A DNA stretch of 64,000 bases from Alphaproteobacteria bacterium (GTDB lineage: Bacteria > Pseudomonadota > Alphaproteobacteria > JAAXGF01), in contig CAUVXB020000001.1 of NCBI GenBank assembly GCA_963555825.3, forward strand, positions 256,001-320,000. The letters are read 5' to 3'. Positions 30,713 through 38,651 of the stretch are shown in pieces. The translations under genes and the position numbers were made by a program. The notes beneath the pieces were generated by a model. The model was not told the DNA's origin, searched no databases, and saw nothing but the letters and a program-made list of their open reading frames with translations. Positions within the stretch are counted from its first letter, which is position 1; each line of letters begins with the position of its first letter.

Positions 30713-31612
30713 ATGGCCAGACGCCTTCCTCCGCTCAACGCGCTGCGCGCCTTCGAGGCTGCCGCGCGCCACCTGAGCTTCACCAAGGCGGCCGGCGAGC
30801 TGAGCGTCACGCCGGCCGCGGTGAGCCACCAAGTCAAGGCCCTCGAGGACTATTTCGGCATCCAGCTGTTCCGCCGCCTGACCCGCGCGCTGCTGCTCAC
30901 CGACGCCGGCCAGACGGCATTGCCGGCCTTGCGCGACGGCTTCGACAAGCTCGCCGAGGCGAGCGAGCGGCTGCGCGCGCATGATGCGCGCGGCATGCTC
31001 ACGGTCAGCGTCTCGCCGTCGTTCGCCGCCAAATGGCTGGTGCCGCGGCTCGACGACTTCCGGACCGTTCATCCCGACATCGACCTGCGCCTCGACGCCT
31101 CGGACACCATCGTCGATCTGGCGCGCGGCGAGGCCGATCTGTCGATCCGTTACGGGCCGGGCGGCTATCGCGACCTGCGCGTCGATCTGCTGTTCGAGGC
31201 CGAGGTCTTCCCGGTGTGCGCGCCCGGCCTGTGCGACGGGCAGCACCCCTTGCGCGAGCCCGCCGATCTACACCGGCACACGCTGCTGCACGTCGACTGG
31301 TCGGTGCAGGCGGAGACCTGGCCGGGCTGGCGCATGTGGCTGCTCGCGGCCGGCGCGGAGGGCGTCGACGCGACGCGCGGGCCGCGTTTCTCGCAGGAGA
31401 GCATGGCGGTCCAGTCGGCGGTCGACGGCCACGGCGTCGCGCTGACCTCGAGCGCGCTGGTGACCGACGACATCGCCGCCGGCCGATTGATTCGGCCCTT
31501 CGACCTCAGCCTGCCGCTCAGCTTCGGCTATTACCTGCTCGGCACCGAGGCGACCATCGACCACCCCAAGGTCGCCGCCTTCCGCGACTGGATTTTGGCG
31601 GCGGCGGGTTAG
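30713..31612 (+). CDS. LysR-family regulator, GcvA-like
   Basis: LPPLNALRAFEAAARHLSFTKAA...AVSHQVKALE; divergent from DUF1127. Confidence 0.92.
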   Translation: MARRLPPLNALRAFEAAARHLSFTKAAGELSVTPAAVSHQVKALEDYFGIQLFRRLTRALLLTDAGQTALPALRDGFDKLAEASERLRAHDARGMLTVSVSPSFAAKWLVPRLDDFRTVHPDIDLRLDASDTIVDLARGEADLSIRYGPGGYRDLRVDLLFEAEVFPVCAPGLCDGQHPLREPADLHRHTLLHVDWSVQAETWPGWRMWLLAAGAEGVDATRGPRFSQESMAVQSAVDGHGVALTSSALVTDDIAAGRLIRPFDLSLPLSFGYYLLGTEATIDHPKVAAFRDWILAAAG

Positions 31613-31844
31613 TCTGCCGGTTAGGGGTTCTGCCAAGGCGGCGGCCCAAACGCCCGCTCTTCAGCCGATCATGTCGCCTCGACACCCACCGGCAGACATC
31701 GGCGCAAGTCCATCGACGCTTTCGCTGCTTACTCAGAGCGGCCATTTATCGGCGACGCATCTGCTGGACGGTGCTACGATATTTGCGCGGTCTAGGAACT
31801 TCTCGGCCATAGCGACGTAAGGACGACCGTGGTCTGCATCCATG

Positions 31845-33499
31845 GGGTGCGAGTCTCGCATGGCAGTGATGTCTGCGGCTTGGTTCGTTGAGTTCAGGCA
31901 GCGATTGCCATGGCTGCTGCACGTGGACTGATGTTGTCGTTGGCCGGTGTGTCGGTTGCGCTGATCAGGGCCTTCCATGCCCGCTCGAAGCGGCCGGATT
32001 TGATCAGGGCGCGGAAGGTCAGAACAGCCTGTCCGCCGACGATCCGCCAGCGCATGCCGGAGCGCTTCATGCGCTGTGTCACCAGGGTCTTGTTGGCAGC
32101 TTCGACCACGCCTGAGCCGATGGCGATGCCCTCTTCCTTCAGGGCGTGGTAGCGCATGCGATGGCGATGCTTGCGGAAGAAGGCGAGTTCCCGCTCGGTC
32201 TCGGCCCGGTCCGGCGCAGCGGCGGCATCGCGAAGGTGGCGCAGCGCCCGGATCACCTTGGCGACGCCACGGGGATCGTGACGGAGGATCTCGCGGTACT
32301 TCTCGAACCAGCCGGGCGCCACGGCATGGTCGGACGCGGTTTGCAGATGTTCGCAAGCATGCCAGAAGTCGATCACCTCGGTTTCGGGCGACAGGGTCTC
32401 CAGGAAGGTCCAGTTGTCGGCGGCGCCATCGGCGATAGCGACGATCCCGATCTCGGGGCGTGCTCGCCTGATGTGTGCGACTTCGCTTGCAAGCTGCGCC
32501 TTCAGCGTGAGCTTGCCGCTCTCCGGCATGCGGCCGAGATAGAGGGTCTTCAGGCGCTTGCCCTCGGCGTCGTGGAAGGAGACCGTGCCGCAGGCAGCCT
32601 CGCGCCAGGAGGCCTTGGCGCGACCGTCCTCGCCGGGTCTCAGCGGCACCATGACGCCGTCGAGGGAGACCGAGGCGGTGGTCGCGTCCTGCGGGTATGC
32701 CCTCGGCCTCACGGATGCTGCCCAGCGTCTCCGGGCCGAGGCTCTCCCAGCATTCGTGCATGCTCAGGGTCAGGCGCTGCAGGGTGCTCACCGACGGCGT
32801 CATGGCGCCGGTCTTCGCAAAGAACGCCGCCGCTTCCCGGGCCGTGCAGTGACCCATCATCAGCAGACCGAGCTCGGCCGCCGGCCGCGTCAGGTAATCG
32901 TCGACGAGGCCCAGGCTCTCGTCGACCGGCACCGGCGATGCCCCGCTCGCGCCGCTGCGGTAACGCGCTCGCCGGTAGGTCACCGGACCGAGCGAGGTCA
33001 TGATCGTCTTCGGCGTCACCGCGACCCGGAACCAGCTCTGCCCGTCCCGCTCGATCCGGGAAGCGCCATCGTCCCGGTTCTCGATGACGGCGCCCATGAC
33101 ATCGCGAGCGAACTCGTTCGTGGCCTCACGCACCCGCAACTCGACCTCCTCGGGCGCCTCGGGGCGCGGCTCGGAACGAAGCTCCTCGCGACACAGTGCG
33201 AGCACCCGGGCGGCCGCCTCGACGACCCGAGGAGGCAGGCCGGAAAGATCGATGGACGAAGGCGCCGGAGGCGGGGATACTGCCATGGGAATGCTCCCGA
33301 TGTTGGGTTTCGAGACACGGCATCGTACCGCTTCTGGCGGTGCGGAGCGTTCCCACCTTCCCCTGCTCGACCCTGCCGTCGTGACAAAATCCTGCCTTGG
33401 AGCGGCCCATTGTCACGAATAGCCGATTTCGGCCGTTCGTCTCGACACAAAAAACGCACTAAATCAATGACTTAGATTTTCCATACCAGACCCACACCC
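31845..33499 (-). mobile_element. ISKra4/ISLre2-like element (1655 bp)
   Basis: IRs GGGTGCGAGTCTCGCATGG / CCATACCAGACCCACACCC; 8-bp TSD CATCCATG at 31837-31844 and 33500-33507. Confidence 0.88.
31894..33286 (-). pseudogene. ISKra4-like transposase with a frameshift near 32695
   Basis: VSLDG, ADGA, DFWHACEHL, IGSGVVEAANK..RMKRSGMRW; N- and C-halves lie in different frames at ATACCCGCAG. Confidence 0.82.
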
Positions 33500-33575
33500 C
33501 ATCCATGCCCTAAACCGCGGCCCGCCCGGGTGACACAGGCCGGATGATGGGCCATGAGGGTCTTCGTGGAGGTTT

Positions 33576-33740
33576 TTATGCGGATCCGCATAAGATGTTG
33601 TGATAACAAGACCCAAGAGGCGCAACCGGCTGATTCTCAAGGGGGTTATCGTCGCCGTATCTGCCGTTTTGACGGTAGGTTATAGGGACTGAAAACCGGG
33701 TTCCCGCATCTTATGCGGGCCCATCTAATCATTGTTAGAT
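33576..33740 (+). promoter_or_regulatory. Putative attI region of the integron
   Basis: Palindrome TTATGCGGATCCGCATAA (33576-33593), inverted copy CATCTTATGCGG (33707-33718), then ATCTAAT-CATT-G/TTAGAT with a GTTRRRY core at 33734-33740. Confidence 0.6.
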
Positions 33741-33760
33741 CTCACGGGACATTTCGAGAC

Positions 33761-36072
33761 ATGCCAGATGTAAATTTCGATGAGAAGCTCAAGCTAGTGG
33801 AGTTTGAGCTCCGAGCGCGAGTCGAATCGTACGTGTGGCAGCGTCTTTCGCGCCTAGGATGGACGTTGGGCATACTGGCGACGATTCTCGGTATTCTCGG
33901 CGTACCTACGGCGTTGAATCAAATTGAAGTATCGGTCGCAAGTGCCATCAAAGCGGAATTGAAAGAAGAAACCGAGGCACTGAAGGATCGAATTCAGAAG
34001 GATCTGGCGGGTCTCGCAATTGAGACTGAGAAGCTCCATCAAGAGGCGGAGAAAGGACGGACACTGCTGGCGCAGATCGCTTCTGACTCCGAGAAACTTC
34101 GTACCCTCCAGGAAAACTACGCCTCTCTTGAGCAGACGACCTCGGAACTCAGTGAGAGGATCAGGCAGACCCAGTTGGTGTCAGCGAAAGCAGCTAAGGA
34201 CACTGCTTCTCTCAAAAGCGACGTAACGGGCGCCGAGGGGATGTCCCGGTATTTGTTGAAACTTTGAATTAGGGTGGCGTTGCTTCCCCTGAGCCGTAGG
34301 CTCGGGGTGCTTAAACCAAGAAAGGAAGCAACACCATGAAGACGACTACCACATCCGCGACCGCGCTGGCCAGTGCGGCGAATGTTCACGCCCTTGTTAA
34401 AGAGGCCTTTGACGCGGTCGGGGCGAGCTTTGAGCGGTTCTGCCTGATGGCTGGCATTGAAAGCCTGACACAGATGCTGGGAGAAGACGTGGACACGCTT
34501 GCGGGTGGGCGATATGAGCACCGTCCAGACAAGCCTGGCTACCGATGGGGTCAGGCCAAGGCGCAGGTTGGGTTCCATGGGGGCAAGATCGAAGTTGATC
34601 GCCCGCGTGTCCGCAACAAGGCGACGGGTAAAGAGATGACGCTGCCGAGTTGGGAAGAGATTGCCGCTGGCGGCTTTCTCGATCAGTGGGCCGTGAACCT
34701 GATGGTGATGAACGTCGATTGTTCGGAGGCAGAAGCGCTGGATGGGGAAGTGCGACCCGACAATTTGGCCGGGCGGTGCGCCTGCCGGAAGCCCGGGTTC
34801 CGGCACAAGTTGGCAGCGGGCTTTCAAAGTCTGCGGTCTCACGTCGCTTCAAGGCCCTGACGCAGGCGCATTTCAATGATTGGATGGGGTCCGATCTGTC
34901 CGAGCACGACATCATTGCGATCCAGATCGACGGACTGCATCTGGACGATCGCCTATTGATGATCGGAGCCGTCGGCATTGACGTTTTGGGGGAAAAGCAC
35001 CCTCTGGGCGTCATTGAGGGGGCCACAGAGAACACCGCTACCGTGCAGGCCCTGCTCGATAACCTGATTGAGCGCGGCCTTGATCCGGAGGGCTGTTACC
35101 TCTTCATCGTGGACGGTGCCAAAGCGCTCACCAAGGCCATCCGGCGTACCTTCGGCGCAGACATCCCCATTCAGCGTTGCCAGATCCACAAGGCTCGCAA
35201 CATTACCGACAGGCTCGACCCGAAGCATCACGCAGCTGTGCGACGTGCTCTGAAGCAGGCATGGGAACTGGATGACGCCGACAAGGCTGAGCGCTTGATG
35301 CGCAATCTGGCGCGGAGGCTGGAGATGGAAGCGCCGGATGTGTCGAAATCGATCCTCGAAGGCATCGATGAAATCCTGACTGTCGTCAGACTTGGCCTTC
35401 CGTTGGAATTGCGGCGCTCACTGGCCAGTACCAACATCATTGAATCCATGAACAGCGTTATCCGCCGCGTCTGCCGAAATGTGAAGCGCTGGCGGGATGC
35501 AAAAATGGCCTTGCGCTGGACTTCCGCCGGGATGTTCGAAGCGCAGAAAGGCTTTCGCCGCATCAAAGCATACAAGCAACTGCCCATTCTCAAGCAAGCT
35601 CTCATCGATCACCGCGAAAAAGCCAAACTTGACCAGTTGAAGGACGCAGCATAACCTCCCATCAAGCAGCGCCGCTCAGGCGAGTTTCAACACAGACTGG
35701 GACATTCCCGGCGCCGAGGCAGAACCGGTTATTACAGAATGGAGCGGTAATGTCGCCGGTGATATGCTCGAAATTGGCGGCTCCAATTTTGGCGCGTCAC
35801 CCGGCAGGGTAACGATGTTCTGGATCGCTCACCCCTCGGCACCCTTCGTCCAGGATGATACGCTTTTCTCCGACGCGGTAGAGCTGGACGGGACAGACTC
35901 TGAAGTCTGGACGGATTCTGAAATTACGATACGTTACTCGGACGAAGTGAGAGAACGAGCAAGACAATGGGAAGCAGATCATGCCGGCGAGGAAACAAAT
36001 ATTATGGTAAGGATAACGACAGCCGACGGACGAAATGCTACCACGTCGGACCGACTTCCGGAGAGCCCCTAG
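33761..36072 (+). pseudogene. Integron cassette gene: TM + coiled coil + IPT/TIG-like domain (276 aa rebuilt), interrupted by IS256
   Basis: In-frame join VTGAE|AEPVITEW...GDMLEIGGSNFGASPGRV...WTDSEITI...VRITTADG; lower GC than the flanks. Confidence 0.8.
34237..35709 (+). mobile_element. IS256-family element with frameshifted transposase (34336-35654)
   Basis: 27-bp imperfect IR GGGGATGTCCCGGTATTTGTTGAAACT; 8-bp TSD GGCGCCGA; QIDG, VDGAKAL, QRCQIHK, STNIIES; 35-nt insert at 34717-34751. Confidence 0.9.
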
Positions 36073-36109
36073 GGTCAGTAGTTTAGCGTCGAATACTACA
36101 CCTATTCCG

Positions 36110-36166
36110 ATCTAACTTCTGGCTGAAGCCGACGCCGTGCCCGCGCGGCTGAGCCACACGTTCGTC
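36110..36166 (+). other. attC recombination site (57 bp)
   Basis: R'' ATCTAAC; arms TGGCTGAAGCCGACGC / GCGCGGCTGAGCCA with two extrahelical bases; R' GTTCGTC; R'' is complementary to GTTAGATC at the cassette start. Confidence 0.82.
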
Positions 36167-36425
36167 TTGCGAGCCTTCACGAACCGAGACTTGATTAGTT
36201 CCCGGTTGGCGGGGGGTACCAATAAGCTGAAGGTCCGCCTCGGGATTCGAAATCTCACGGCACTTCCGCATATGGCGAATCCCCGAAGCCGGGGCCACCG
36301 ACGAGTTGCTTCCGCTTTGCCCTCATGACCGGGTGTTCGGGTCCGCGCGGCATGTTTCGCGGATCAGATTTCAATCCGCGAGAGGCGACCCGTCGTCGCG
36401 GGCGGACGATGTCGATTGCTTCGCT

Positions 36426-38651
36426 TCAGCGCCGCGCCTTGCCTCGCCGCCCCTTGCCGCGGCCAGAACGCGGCGCCGGTCGGCGCGTCTTGCCGTCGGG
36501 TTCGCTGCCGCCCGAGATCAGCTCGAAGACCAGCCCGCCGGTGACGATCTCGGCCTCGCGCAGGCGCACCTCGACGGCGTCGCCCAGGCGCAGCACACGG
36601 TCGTCGCCGATCAGGCGCTGGTTGGCTTCGTCGTGGATGACGTCGCGCGCCAAGCTGCGCCTGGGCACGATGCCCTCGGCGCCGGTCTCGTCGAGCGCGA
36701 CGAACAGGCCGAAACGCGTGACGCCGACGATGCGGCCAGCGAACACGCCGCCGACGCGCTCGGCCATATAGGCCGCGGTGAAGCGCTCGACCGCGTCGCG
36801 CTCGGCGCCGGCGGCGCGGCGTTCTGTCACCGACAGATGTTCGCCAATCGCCTCGAAGCGGTCCTCGGCGCCCTCGGGCAGGCCGTCGGGACCGAGCTTT
36901 AAGCCGCCGATCATCGCGCGGTGGACCAGCAGGTCGGCGTAGCGCCGGATCGGCGAGGTGAAATGACTGTATCGCCTGAGACCGAGGCCGAAGTGGCCGA
37001 TGTTGCCCGGTTGGTAGGCGGCCTGCGACTGGCTGCGCAGGATCGCCAGATTGACGGCGGGGGCGTGCGGCAGATTCTCGACGCGGCGCAGCACCTCGGT
37101 GAAGTGGCTCGGGCTCGGCCGGTGGGTGTCGGCCAGGCGGTGGCCGAGGCTGGTCAGGAAGCCGCGCAGCTCGACCAGCTTCTCGGCGCTCGGCCGGTCG
37201 TGGACGCGGTACATGACCGGCGCGCGCAGCGCCTCGAGCGTCTCGGCGGCGGCGACGTTGGCGGCGATCATGAGTTCCTCGATCAACCGGTGGCTCATCA
37301 ACCGGGTCCGTGGCTTGATCTCGGCGACCTGGCCGTCGGCGTCGAGCACGATTTGGCGTTCGGGCAGATCGAGGTCGATCGTGCCGCGCTTCTCGCGCGC
37401 CCGGAGCAGCGCATCGAAGACGCCGTAGAGTGGCGCGATGACCGTCTCGACGAGCGCTGCGGTCGCCTCGTCGGGGTGGCCGTCATGCGCCGCCTGGACC
37501 TGTTGGTAGGTCAGGCGCGCCGCCGAGCGCATCAGGCCGCGCACCAAACGGTGGCGGGTTAGCGATCCGCCGCGGTCGATCCACAGGTGCATGGCGAGAC
37601 AGGGCCGCGGCTCGCCGGGCTTGAGCGAGCATAGCGTGTTCGACAATTCCTCGGGCAGCATCGGCACGACGCGGTCGGGCAGGTAGACCGAATTGCCACG
37701 CGCGAAGGCGGCGCGGTCGAGCGCGCTGCCCGGCCGCACGTAATGAGCGACGTCGGCGATCGCGACGATGGCGTGCCAGCCGCCTCGTCGTTCCGGGTCG
37801 GCCTGCGCCCAGACCGCGTCGTCGAAGTCGCGCGCGTCGGCGCCGTCGATGGTGACCAGGGGAATGTCGCGTATATCGTCGCGTCCGCCCGGCGTTTCGA
37901 CCGGCCGGGCGGCGGCCGCATCGGCCAGTGAGTCGGCCGGGAATTCGATCGGGATGTCGCGGCTGTGCAGTGCGATCAGGCCGATCGCGCGCGGGTCGCC
38001 GAGCGACGAGCCGAGCCGCTCGACGATCTTGCCCTGGGGCAGGCCGAGCCGGCCGCCGGGCAGCGCCTCGACGAGCACCAGCTCGCCCGGTTTGGCGCCG
38101 ATGGCATCGGTCATGGCGACGACGAACTCGGTCTTGACGCGGCGATCGGTCGGCTGCACCCGGCCTTCGCCGCCCTTGACGCGGTAGACGCCGAGCACGC
38201 GGCCCGTTTCGCGCGGCAGCCGGCGGATCGTGCGGCCCTCGTAGCGGTCGTTGCCCAGCTTGGTCAGCCGCGCGAGCACCCGATCGCCGATCGCGAGTCC
38301 GGATCGGCCGCGTTTCTCGGGCTGCATGATGACGTGCGGCGGTGCGCCTTCGCCGCGCCAGCCGACCGGCCGGGCGAGCGGCTCGCCATCGCCGTCGAGG
38401 CCGGTGATCTCGACGACGGATACCGGCGGCAGTCGCGACGTCGGGCTGAGCCGGCGGCCGCGGCCGCGATCGACCAGGCCATCGCGCTCGATCTCGCGCA
38501 GCATCTCCTTGAGCAACACGCGGTCGTTGCCGAGCAGGTTGAAGGCGCGCGCGATCTCGCGCTTGCCGACCGGGCCGGTGCTTTCTTCGATGAAGGCGAG
38601 CAGTTCGTCGCGGCTCGGCAGCTGCGTCAGCTTACGGAGCTTCTTAGCCAT
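36426..38651 (-). CDS. rnr: Ribonuclease R
   Basis: TIDGADARDFDDA, HFTSPIRRYADLLVHR, C-terminal S1 domain and basic tail. Confidence 0.96.
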   Translation of the reverse strand: MAKKLRKLTQLPSRDELLAFIEESTGPVGKREIARAFNLLGNDRVLLKEMLREIERDGLVDRGRGRRLSPTSRLPPVSVVEITGLDGDGEPLARPVGWRGEGAPPHVIMQPEKRGRSGLAIGDRVLARLTKLGNDRYEGRTIRRLPRETGRVLGVYRVKGGEGRVQPTDRRVKTEFVVAMTDAIGAKPGELVLVEALPGGRLGLPQGKIVERLGSSLGDPRAIGLIALHSRDIPIEFPADSLADAAAARPVETPGGRDDIRDIPLVTIDGADARDFDDAVWAQADPERRGGWHAIVAIADVAHYVRPGSALDRAAFARGNSVYLPDRVVPMLPEELSNTLCSLKPGEPRPCLAMHLWIDRGGSLTRHRLVRGLMRSAARLTYQQVQAAHDGHPDEATAALVETVIAPLYGVFDALLRAREKRGTIDLDLPERQIVLDADGQVAEIKPRTRLMSHRLIEELMIAANVAAAETLEALRAPVMYRVHDRPSAEKLVELRGFLTSLGHRLADTHRPSPSHFTEVLRRVENLPHAPAVNLAILRSQSQAAYQPGNIGHFGLGLRRYSHFTSPIRRYADLLVHRAMIGGLKLGPDGLPEGAEDRFEAIGEHLSVTERRAAGAERDAVERFTAAYMAERVGGVFAGRIVGVTRFGLFVALDETGAEGIVPRRSLARDVIHDEANQRLIGDDRVLRLGDAVEVRLREAEIVTGGLVFELISGGSEPDGKTRRPAPRSGRGKGRRGKARR

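Follow-up and report, generated by a model that had tools for sequence, protein, structure and literature searches.

A probable chromosomal-integron relic, interrupted by two insertion sequences, in a sponge-associated alphaproteobacterium

The stretch of DNA considered here (64,000 nucleotides, which we call the window) belongs to a 6-Mb genome from a sponge-associated, Rhodospirillales-like lineage; its TopA is 61-64% identical to those of Rhodospirillales-type genomes, which bears out the alphaproteobacterial host named in an earlier reading made from the letters alone (below, the sequence-only reading). Within the window, the gene gcvA ends at 31612 and adjoins the truncated side of what was once a recombinase gene, and from there a series of features runs downstream (Table 1): the decayed gene, a junction, a single open reading frame and a folded recombination site, with two insertion sequences (IS) sitting among them. 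GC content is 0.54 in this island versus 0.65 in the genome. The 64-kb window is devoid of tRNA genes, so a tRNA-linked island, which we had considered, was ruled out.

Table 1. Features of the locus, in window coordinates
Feature	Position	Strand	Description and evidence
intI pseudogene, left piece	31692-31844	+	Box II to just past the catalytic residue; translations, TIGR02249, tblastn
IS1, ISKra4-family IS	31845-33499 (1655 bp)	- (transposase)	NF033572, 137.9 bits; inserted in intI
intI pseudogene, right piece	33508-33548	+	IntI-type tail ALNRGPPG at 33508, TGA at 33531-33, then HRPDD
Putative attI-side region	33549-33736	+	Presumed attI function; ends in GTT crossover triplet 33734-36
Gene cassette	33735-36160	+	945 bp without IS2; one ORF
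Cassette ORF, 276 aa	33761-34236 and 35718-36072	+	Continuous with IS2 removed
IS2, IS256-family IS	34237-35709	+	NF033543, 189.8 bits; inside the cassette ORF
attC site	36110-36166 (57 nt)	+	R'' ATCTAAC, R' GTTCGTC; three covariance models

How far can one trust a locus that becomes legible only when two IS have been taken out of it? Each is bounded by an exact 8-bp target duplication (CATCCATG at 31837-44 and 33500-07 for IS1; GGCGCCGA at 34229-36 and 35710-17 for IS2), and contigs without them exist. IS2 is skipped exactly by contigs in all four runs, and in three of the four each flank measures 31 letters or more. For IS1, run X2 has such contigs, with a shorter flank of 33 letters, and X7 gives weaker evidence, with a shorter flank of 22 letters. 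Because of these duplications and contigs, we can say that IS-free alleles occur in nature and that removing the IS in silico mirrors a natural state; the sequence-only reading had rightly supposed that two IS hide the element. IS elements are abundant throughout the genome, which carries about 40 near-identical copies of IS1 elsewhere.

With IS1 removed, the recombinase remnant amounts to the last ~60 codons of intI. The 5' ~80% of the gene, everything upstream of the left piece, is missing, and with it the part that encodes the IntI-specific extra domain between the conserved patches. In the left piece, which ends ...ELLGHSDVRTTVVCIH at 31844, the frame shifts near 31773, a TAG follows at 31793-95, and a Cys codon (31835-37) takes the position of the IntI catalytic Tyr; in the right piece, the HRPDD that follows the TGA aligns with ..SPLD of IntI. 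A frameshift, two in-frame stops, a substituted catalytic residue and an IS insertion leave the gene with neither its Tyr nor an open frame.

Can so short and so damaged a piece be told apart from XerC or XerD, the comparison on which the sequence-only reading had staked its claim of a decayed IntI C-terminus with an HxLNRGP tail? On the evidence of three kinds of comparison, it can. The top 17 phmmer matches to the remnant are all IntI, C-terminal HMMs score it at 44.9 bits for IntI versus 30.5 for XerD, and the tail motif H.LN[RKQ]G occurs in 11 of 27 IntI and in 0 of 62 other recombinases (29 XerD, 29 recombinases of this genome and 4 others, all without it). In tblastn, HSPs for 28 of 28 correctly extracted IntI start at 31769-31778, and in all 28 the alignment runs through the IS1 junction without a change of frame, at 46-59% identity (L038, 38%); similarity to IntI begins at about 31752-31769 and is weak upstream of 31752. 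The XerD profile (TIGR02225) and PF00589 do not list the remnant at E<=10 (the genome's own Xer genes, which lie elsewhere, reach 321.9, 227.9 and 212.1 bits with TIGR02225), and we rejected a XerC/XerD identity on this silence and on an XerD C-terminal HMM score 14 bits lower. The IntI profile TIGR02249 matches the window at 31775-31873 with 19.5 bits (E 0.0019, profile positions 277-308 only), far under its curated cut-off of 265 bits because the gene is a 5'-truncated pseudogene. These comparisons support a remnant of the IntI type, rather than of XerC/D or a generic recombinase.

Downstream of the remnant, the cassette starts at the junction GTTAGATC (33734-33741). The sequence-only reading had pointed to a GTTAGAT core about 177 bp after the remnant; the core is there, and it is the spacing that needs correcting, to 200 nt from the TGA or 185 nt from the end of IntI similarity at 33548. 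GTTAGAT occurs once per strand in the window, precisely at the cassette start and at attC (50 times in the genome, both strands), and its chance expectation in the 225 nt that separate the remnant from the ORF lies between 0.001 (genome rate) and 0.011 (island composition). An inverted repeat, ATCTAA (33723-28) and TTAGAT (33735-40), flanks the junction, and a 12-nt inverted repeat lies at 33586-97 and 33707-18; no promoter-like site was found in 33500-33800. To judge from its place and these repeats, the region 33549-33736 may have acted as attI.

The cassette has the economy one associates with such elements: a single ORF, little flanking DNA and a terminal attC. As the sequence-only reading had it, the ORF follows closely on the core, its ATG (33761) lying 20 nt past GTTAGAT and being preceded by just 26 nt of cassette, and attC begins 37 nt past the stop. 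The intact 276-aa protein (P0001) is present in other samples, and we found one relative, P0002 (335 aa, 48% identical). No loci with P0001 or P0002 turned up in genome contigs and metagenome contigs, no relatives of the protein among 60 related genomes, and no relative with an intact version of the integron in any of these three sets. The protein belongs to no family in Pfam, NCBIfam or PADLOC (sub-threshold coiled-coil noise only), and the gene is unrelated to any resistance gene. A long N-terminal helical region and a beta-rich C-terminal domain are predicted; the AlphaFold model, made without an alignment, has a pLDDT of 67 and is therefore too weak for a fold search, and Atlas gave scores <0.9, with only a weak TIG-domain lead.

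The attC site, the only one at the locus, ties the end of the cassette to its beginning. Its GATCTAAC (36109-36116) is the exact reverse complement, over 8 bases, of 33734-33741, and the complementarity between R'' and the first bases of the cassette, noticed on first reading, is thus real. R'' (ATCTAAC) fits RYYYAAC at 7 of 7 positions. The integrated R' (GTTCGTC) has the GTT of GTTRRRY and two of the four positions that follow; in the circular form, where R' is completed by the cassette's own first bases, it would become GTTAGAT, a 7/7 fit that is fully complementary to R'', and the two R boxes would then be consensus boxes that pair. In the L-box stem, the 5' arm carries an extra base and GAC contains a bulged A, with an extrahelical base on the R''-L'' arm and unpaired spacers; cmsearch alignments put both the extra base and the A of GAC at the model's unpaired positions and show one A-G mismatch. 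Of the 57 positions, 39 are the same as in a 60-nt attC from genome G505, a site that scores 70.4 bits with a model (R3) untrained on it.

Covariance support for the site depends on the model. R1, a home-made model from 23 sites beside bona fide IntI, gives 31.6 bits in the window (E 2.4e-5; the next match has 14.9 bits) and makes 36110-36166 its sole match in 6 Mb (E 0.0023); it is a specific model, for on control loci 65 of its 65 matches (15-54.7 bits, 11 loci outside training) fall on the cassette side and the expected strand. R2, also home-made and built without the two G505 sites, scores the site at 18.0 bits (window E 0.049); because its MAFFT loop alignment was poor, this low score mixes two effects, which the third home-made model, R3 (78 sites), was built to separate. 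R3 gives 17.5 bits (E 0.075 in the window), and neither R2 nor R3 is significant genome-wide. In all three models the site is the window's top match, full-length and with equal coordinates for R2 and R3; in the covariance check proposed for the sequence-only reading, the site passes with R1 and does so only weakly with the other two, a mixed result. Crude structural criteria find just 9 equally good sites in the genome, against a background of ~8 per 12 Mb of strand. Hairpin folding energy, unremarkable here (z about -1.5), was dropped as evidence. A crude attC finder that allows at most one mismatch in R' did not pick up the site because that box is non-consensus. Rfam has no attC family, and its sole match within 31000-37000 is a sub-threshold permuted tmRNA inside IS1; in blastn against 72,556 plasmids the attC region gave chance-level matches only (best E 0.2, none with at least 80% query cover).

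What, then, was this locus? We think it very likely the relic of a chromosomal integron whose integrase is co-oriented with the cassette. Its history might have begun when an IntI-type recombinase joined a circular cassette, through the folded attC, to an attI just 3' of intI, a reaction that would have left a hybrid junction, G|TTAGATC, at the cassette start and a hybrid R', GTT|CGTC, at its end. The platform has since decayed: the 5' ~80% of intI is lost, and the rest has acquired the frameshift, the two stops and the Cys in place of the catalytic Tyr; an ISKra4-family IS interrupts what is left of intI, and the cassette ORF of this strain is interrupted by an IS256-family IS. The element is dead, because the 6-Mb genome has no intact IntI: the capture and shuffling of genes are over, and the cassette is therefore frozen in place. 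The sequence-only reading had proposed an integron; all the features on which it drew are present, and that interpretation is supported, the remnant grouping with IntI rather than XerC/D and the host being alphaproteobacterial; neither of the outcomes it had named as fatal came about.

It had also read intI as co-oriented with the cassette, the "inverted integrase" arrangement, and the remnant, ORF and attC do all lie on the plus strand, so that the layout is not the classical divergent one (in our control loci, 65 of 65 attC matches are on the strand opposite intI). Could this co-orientation be secondary, a divergent intI having been inverted or rearranged, for instance by IS, as it lost its 5' part? 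The genome is certainly full of IS, the breakpoint of intI beside gcvA is unexplained, and the arrays with R1 sites in other Pseudomonadota (8 of the 11 loci outside training) are all classical. But the 185 nt from 33548, where intI ends, to the junction at 33734 are continuous, low in GC like the cassette and free of any IS scar or repeat, and a native group with just this layout is described in the pertinent passages of PMC3575428 and PMC3607928; we hold a secondary rearrangement to be unlikely.

Less likely still is that an integrase supplied in trans put a solitary cassette into a secondary GTT site, next to an unrelated recombinase remnant. IntI can use secondary sites (according to a passage in Cury 2016, PMC4889954), there is just one attC, and GTTCGTC, which would have been the original attI core, is a poor match to the consensus. 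Against this, the remnant is of the IntI type and only some 200 nt separate it from the junction, the ATCTAA/TTAGAT inverted repeat surrounds that junction as in the simple site of an attI, and no other IntI (TIGR02249) or attC (R1) is found elsewhere in the 6-Mb genome. That there never was an integron, only a Xer-like or phage-type integrase pseudogene in a degraded island and a chance GC-rich hairpin after an ORF, would accommodate the weak R2 and R3 scores, the ordinary hairpin energy and a remnant of only about 60 codons, but we find it scarcely credible when ~1.2 kb of DNA, counted without the IS, brings together several independent features: an IntI-specific tail, a covariance match that tops the window and has the expected place and strand, an R'' that is complementary to the cassette start over 8 bases, and 39 of 57 positions identical to those of a bona fide attC, with structural sites expected at only ~8 per 12 Mb of strand.

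Why should a dead integron matter? Its value is evolutionary rather than functional, the cassette gene having no assigned function. The near-absence of integrons from Alphaproteobacteria was termed "extremely puzzling" in a remark of Cury 2016 (PMC4889954), and their total absence was still cited by Ghaly 2022 (PMC9668308). In our own counts, an IntI above the TIGR02249 curated cut-off occurs in 1 out of 401 alphaproteobacterial genomes versus 84 of 401 in a phylum sample that itself takes in Alphaproteobacteria, and an attC-like match at E<=0.01 in 4 of 151 sampled genomes. The locus offers a concrete case of an integron that would have reached an alphaproteobacterial chromosome and then decayed stepwise. 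Its truncation and point defects are common to all samples and its IS insertions are polymorphic between samples, a pattern that supports the picture of a class which receives integrons without keeping them. We are attracted by the broader form of this picture, without being quite persuaded of it: Alphaproteobacteria may acquire chromosomal integrons (here of the co-oriented, "inverted" type) and lose them by decay, leaving relics that surveys may systematically overlook because IS, together with attC and IntI scores below threshold, conceal them. On that view, the class would lack integrons almost entirely through a failure to maintain them, not a failure to receive them. Counting such relics calls for IS-tolerant, six-frame searches.

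A CALIN has by definition at least two attC sites; the single attC here is no cluster, and both integrase and cassette are split by IS, because of which standard pipelines would probably miss this element. The likeness to degenerate integrons and CALIN, as far as the relevant section of Cury 2016 (PMC4889954) describes them, lies in a decayed integrase beside an attC-bearing cassette with IS inside the element; that section reports that 15 of 279 CALIN had an intI pseudogene nearby and that a quarter of integrons contained IS. The attC itself resembles attC-aadA7, as the sequence-only reading had claimed of the 57-bp site: both have TCTAAC in R'', a spacer of 5 nt and an extra base in the L-box, and they share the motif CGCGGCT and the 12-mer AAGCCGACGCCG, which is printed in the attC oligonucleotides of PMC2811028. 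The site differs in its shorter loop, in an extra base that is G and not C (top strand) with an adjacent A-G mismatch, and in an R' that is non-consensus in the integrated state.

The element is of a known kind, and integrons, though extremely rare in Alphaproteobacteria, have been reported there before. Such integrons (Sphingobium, Agrobacterium) share with ours the presence of an integron component in a class poor in them, and differ in being complete and, in the passages concerned, read as recent acquisitions, where ours is a decayed relic. With 6 complete integrons from the class counted in the survey part of IntegronFinder 2.0 (PMC9024848), which calls integron components "extremely rare" there, the view that integrons are essentially absent stands as to rarity and is out of date as to absence. 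In layout, the closest known counterparts are the native integrons with a co-oriented intI, the "inverted integrase group" (e.g., Treponema), in the descriptions given by PMC3575428 and PMC3607928: intI, attI side and cassette follow one another on one strand, with attC after a single, promoterless-looking ORF. The difference is an alphaproteobacterial host, one cassette and a truncated intI pseudogene, of which ~60 codons are left, so that the likeness is one of layout.

The locus is a real, dead integron relic with one cassette, and it lies in a low-GC island (GC 0.52–0.55 between gcvA and rnr against 0.65 for the genome) that is interrupted by two insertion sequences, one of the ISKra4 family (IS1) within what is left of intI and one of the IS256 family (IS2) within the cassette's open reading frame.

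Features of the low-GC island, in window positions
Feature	Position	Strand	Remarks
gcvA	30713–31612		Left border of island; NF008352, 363.6 bits
intI remnant			One frameshift; TAG 31793–31795; TGA 33531–33533; IS1 insertion
IS1, ISKra4 family	31845–33499		
IS2, IS256 family	34237–35709		27-nt terminal inverted repeats
attC	36110–36166	+	Starts 37 nt after stop codon
rnr	36426–38651		Right border of island

About 40 other genomic copies of IS1, at least 99.3% identical, give alignments that stop exactly at its tabulated ends, and an exact 8-bp duplication (CATCCATG) stands on both sides; GGCGCCGA stands on both sides of IS2, which has four or five close copies elsewhere in the genome. Natural populations are polymorphic for both insertions. 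Logan contigs from all four sequencing runs examined (three studies) skip IS2 exactly, joining 34228 to 35710, with at least 31 letters on each side in three of the four, and Logan contigs skip IS1 (31836 joined to 33500) in run X2, with a short side of 33 letters, and in run X7, with a short side of 22 letters, below the tool's own acceptance bar. The proliferation of insertion sequences is massive genome-wide (besides the ISKra4-family copies, there are some 45 distant IS256-type copies, 66–68% identical to IS2), as is typical for a host-restricted symbiont. The IS2 copy in the cassette carries 35 extra bases (34717–34751), absent from high-depth contigs of all four runs (34716 joined to 34752), and these break up its transposase over two frames (ORFs 34336–34860 and 34650–35654); the IS1 copy carries one extra base at 32693 relative to the contigs of the four runs, and this fits a transposase split over two frames (31733–33286 and 31894–32712).

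Is what remains of the integrase IntI, or is it one of the Xer recombinases? With IS1 removed, YDI and, further on, ELLGHSDVRTT are in a single frame that reaches the junction and continues beyond it as ALNRGPPG, a TGA, and HRPDD. The decayed IntI C-terminus with an HxLNRGP-type tail proposed by the sequence-only reading is there. Upstream, ATHLLDG lies in a different frame, which implies a frameshift near 31773; a Cys codon (31835–31837) stands at the place of the catalytic Tyr, and the 5′ ~80% of intI is missing. All four runs show T>C at 31762. The left piece matches the IntI profile TIGR02249 at 19.5 bits (E 0.0019, profile positions 277–308; the cut-off is 265 bits), and neither the XerD profile TIGR02225 nor PF00589 matches the remnant at E ≤ 10. 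Thirty loci in other Pseudomonadota exceeded that IntI cut-off, and the 28 correctly extracted were used for tblastn; all 28 align over the IS1 junction in one frame, across 26–39 residues and at 46–59% identity, locus L038 alone being at 38%. The read-through (59 residues, each break written as X) scored 26.5–44.4 bits against 27 IntI versus 18.2–29.7 bits against 29 XerD, at most 27.6 bits against three class-level Xer-like proteins, and at most 23.0 bits against the genome's own recombinases, only 3 of 29 of which it matched. Eleven of 27 IntI have the tail H.LN[RKQ]G, against none of 29 XerD, 29 own-genome recombinases, or 4 others; H.LNRG is found seven times in the six-frame genome, and the six occurrences outside the remnant all belong to a single repeated sequence, present in several copies and seemingly a mobile element. 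The best 17 matches of the read-through are all IntI, and with models limited to the ~80 C-terminal residues the scores are 44.9 bits for IntI versus 30.5 for XerD (a comparison of the remaining C-terminal part, the part encoding the IntI-specific extra domain being gone), so that the remnant groups with IntI and not with XerC/D.

GATCTAAC (36109–36116) is, over eight bases, the exact reverse complement of GTTAGATC (33734–33741), as had been claimed for R″, an outer box of the attC, and the cassette's first bases, and as predicted if the cassette had been a free circle that was integrated at G|TT; in such a circle R′, the other outer box, would read GTTAGAT, with full consensus fit and full pairing with R″. 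GTTAGAT and its complement occur once each in the window, at those two places, and the chance expectation of GTTAGAT in the 225-nt gap is 0.001–0.011. The junction is on intI's strand, 185–200 nt past its end and not ~177 bp as first estimated, and has an inverted repeat around it (ATCTAA, 33723–33728; TTAGAT, 33735–33740). A terminator-like hairpin lies downstream of intI, and no sigma-70-like promoter was detected in 33500–33800. Between intI and the junction, a perfect 18-nt palindrome (33576–33593) overlaps a 12-nt inverted repeat (CCGCATAAGATG / CATCTTATGCGG, 33586–33597 / 33707–33718, 109 nt apart); these may be protein-binding sites.

The attC, with boxes ATCTAAC (R″) and GTTCGTC (R′), a stem whose 5′ arm has an extra base, and a bulged A in GAC, sits where the cassette must end. 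Because Rfam has no attC family, we built covariance models of our own: R1 from 23 aligned short sites of nine genomes, R2 without the two sites of genome G505 and on a poorer alignment, and R3 from 78 sites of 17 genomes, G505 left out. A crude structural finder, applied to the neighbourhoods of bona fide intI genes (20 loci), gave 83 candidates upstream of intI and 6 downstream, and R1 on 11 untrained loci gave 65 matches at E ≤ 1 (15–54.7 bits), all of them on the side of the cassettes and on the opposite strand to intI. How did these models score the site? R1, whose training included a G505 site identical to it at 39 of 57 positions, gave 31.6 bits (E 2.4e-5 in the window, runner-up 14.9 bits) and had it as the sole genome-wide match at E ≤ 10 (E 0.0023), with 36 of the 65 held-out sites scoring lower. 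By the other two it was not significant genome-wide: R2 gave a window score of 18.0 bits (E 0.049) and did not return it among its genome-wide matches, and R3, which scored the held-out G505 sites at 70.4 and 45.4 bits, gave 17.5 bits (E 0.075; sole window match at E ≤ 1). All three models place their top full-length window match here, at the same coordinates and strand. On profile score the site ranks as a weak-to-middling attC, and its folding energy by itself is unremarkable. Under model-free criteria nine genomic sites are equally good (~8 background sites per 12 Mb of strand), and by chance the 100 nt that follow the ORF would hold roughly 7e-5 of them.

The intI remnant, the ORF, and the attC are all on the + strand, which bears out the co-orientation, with the attI side 3′ of intI, that had been noticed beforehand. 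The "inverted integrase group" has this layout as the relevant passages of PMC3575428 and PMC3607928 describe it, and our classical control loci have the reverse (65 of 65 attC opposite intI); a secondary inversion is a less likely origin for it.

With IS2 removed, the cassette frame is continuous from the ATG at 33761 to 36072 (276 aa). A phmmer search, exhaustive over 1.84 billion representatives, returned two proteins: P0001 (276 aa), identical across the 117-residue query and different from the window at residue 2, and P0002 (335 aa, 48% identical). The P0001 cluster has nine members, the contigs of which reach 850 kb, and takes in a 168-aa truncated form on this genome's own 2.41-Mb contig; together with the IS2-free contigs it implies that the intact gene is present in other samples. 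Two runs show C>T at 33764 (residue 2), and some contigs of three runs have a TTT insertion after 33891. The protein belongs to no known family in Pfam, NCBIfam, or PADLOC; a single-sequence structure model (pLDDT 67) predicts long helices in the N-terminal part and a C-terminal domain rich in beta structure. An IPT/TIG-like fold is no more than a weak lead.

The host is alphaproteobacterial, as supposed: the window's TopA is 61–64% identical to that of Rhodospirillales, Rhodospirillaceae, and other alphaproteobacterial genomes, and nearly all of the 80 loci listed carry alphaproteobacterial names (two have other labels). The locus is present in runs from sponge metagenomes and in those of two coded organisms. 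One of 401 class genomes has IntI above the curated cut-off, against 84 of 401 in a phylum sample that includes genomes of this class; R1 has matches at E ≤ 0.01 in 4 of 151 class genomes, this one among them. The genome has no intact IntI (0 of 77 profile matches above cut-off, best 79 bits). The one class genome with IntI above the cut-off, G147, has an intI pseudogene (335 bits, two TGA) and an attC-like site (36.9 bits, classical orientation) on the same ~3-kb contig (C41), and two further attC-like sites (51.9 and 46.9 bits) on small contigs C43 and C37; these may belong to a genuine integron or come from contamination in binning. Single attC-like matches in two more class genomes (G015:C112:1500–1547, 37.7 bits; G006:C1:4387595–4387666, 31.6 bits), with no IntI similarity within 1.5 kb, may be solo cassettes or chance.

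That integrons are essentially absent from Alphaproteobacteria agrees with the survey counts of Cury 2016, with 0 integron, In0, or CALIN (the survey classes) among 243 genomes (PMC4889954), and not with the six complete integrons, in Sphingobium and Agrobacterium, that the IntegronFinder 2.0 text terms extremely rare (PMC9024848); a statement in Ghaly 2022 still has them "entirely absent" (PMC9668308). By title or abstract, none of the papers found reports the remains of an integron in an alphaproteobacterium from a sponge. Integrons in decay, carrying intI pseudogenes and insertion sequences, are already known elsewhere, and the relic is a further case of this known phenomenon, in a class where cases are very rare.
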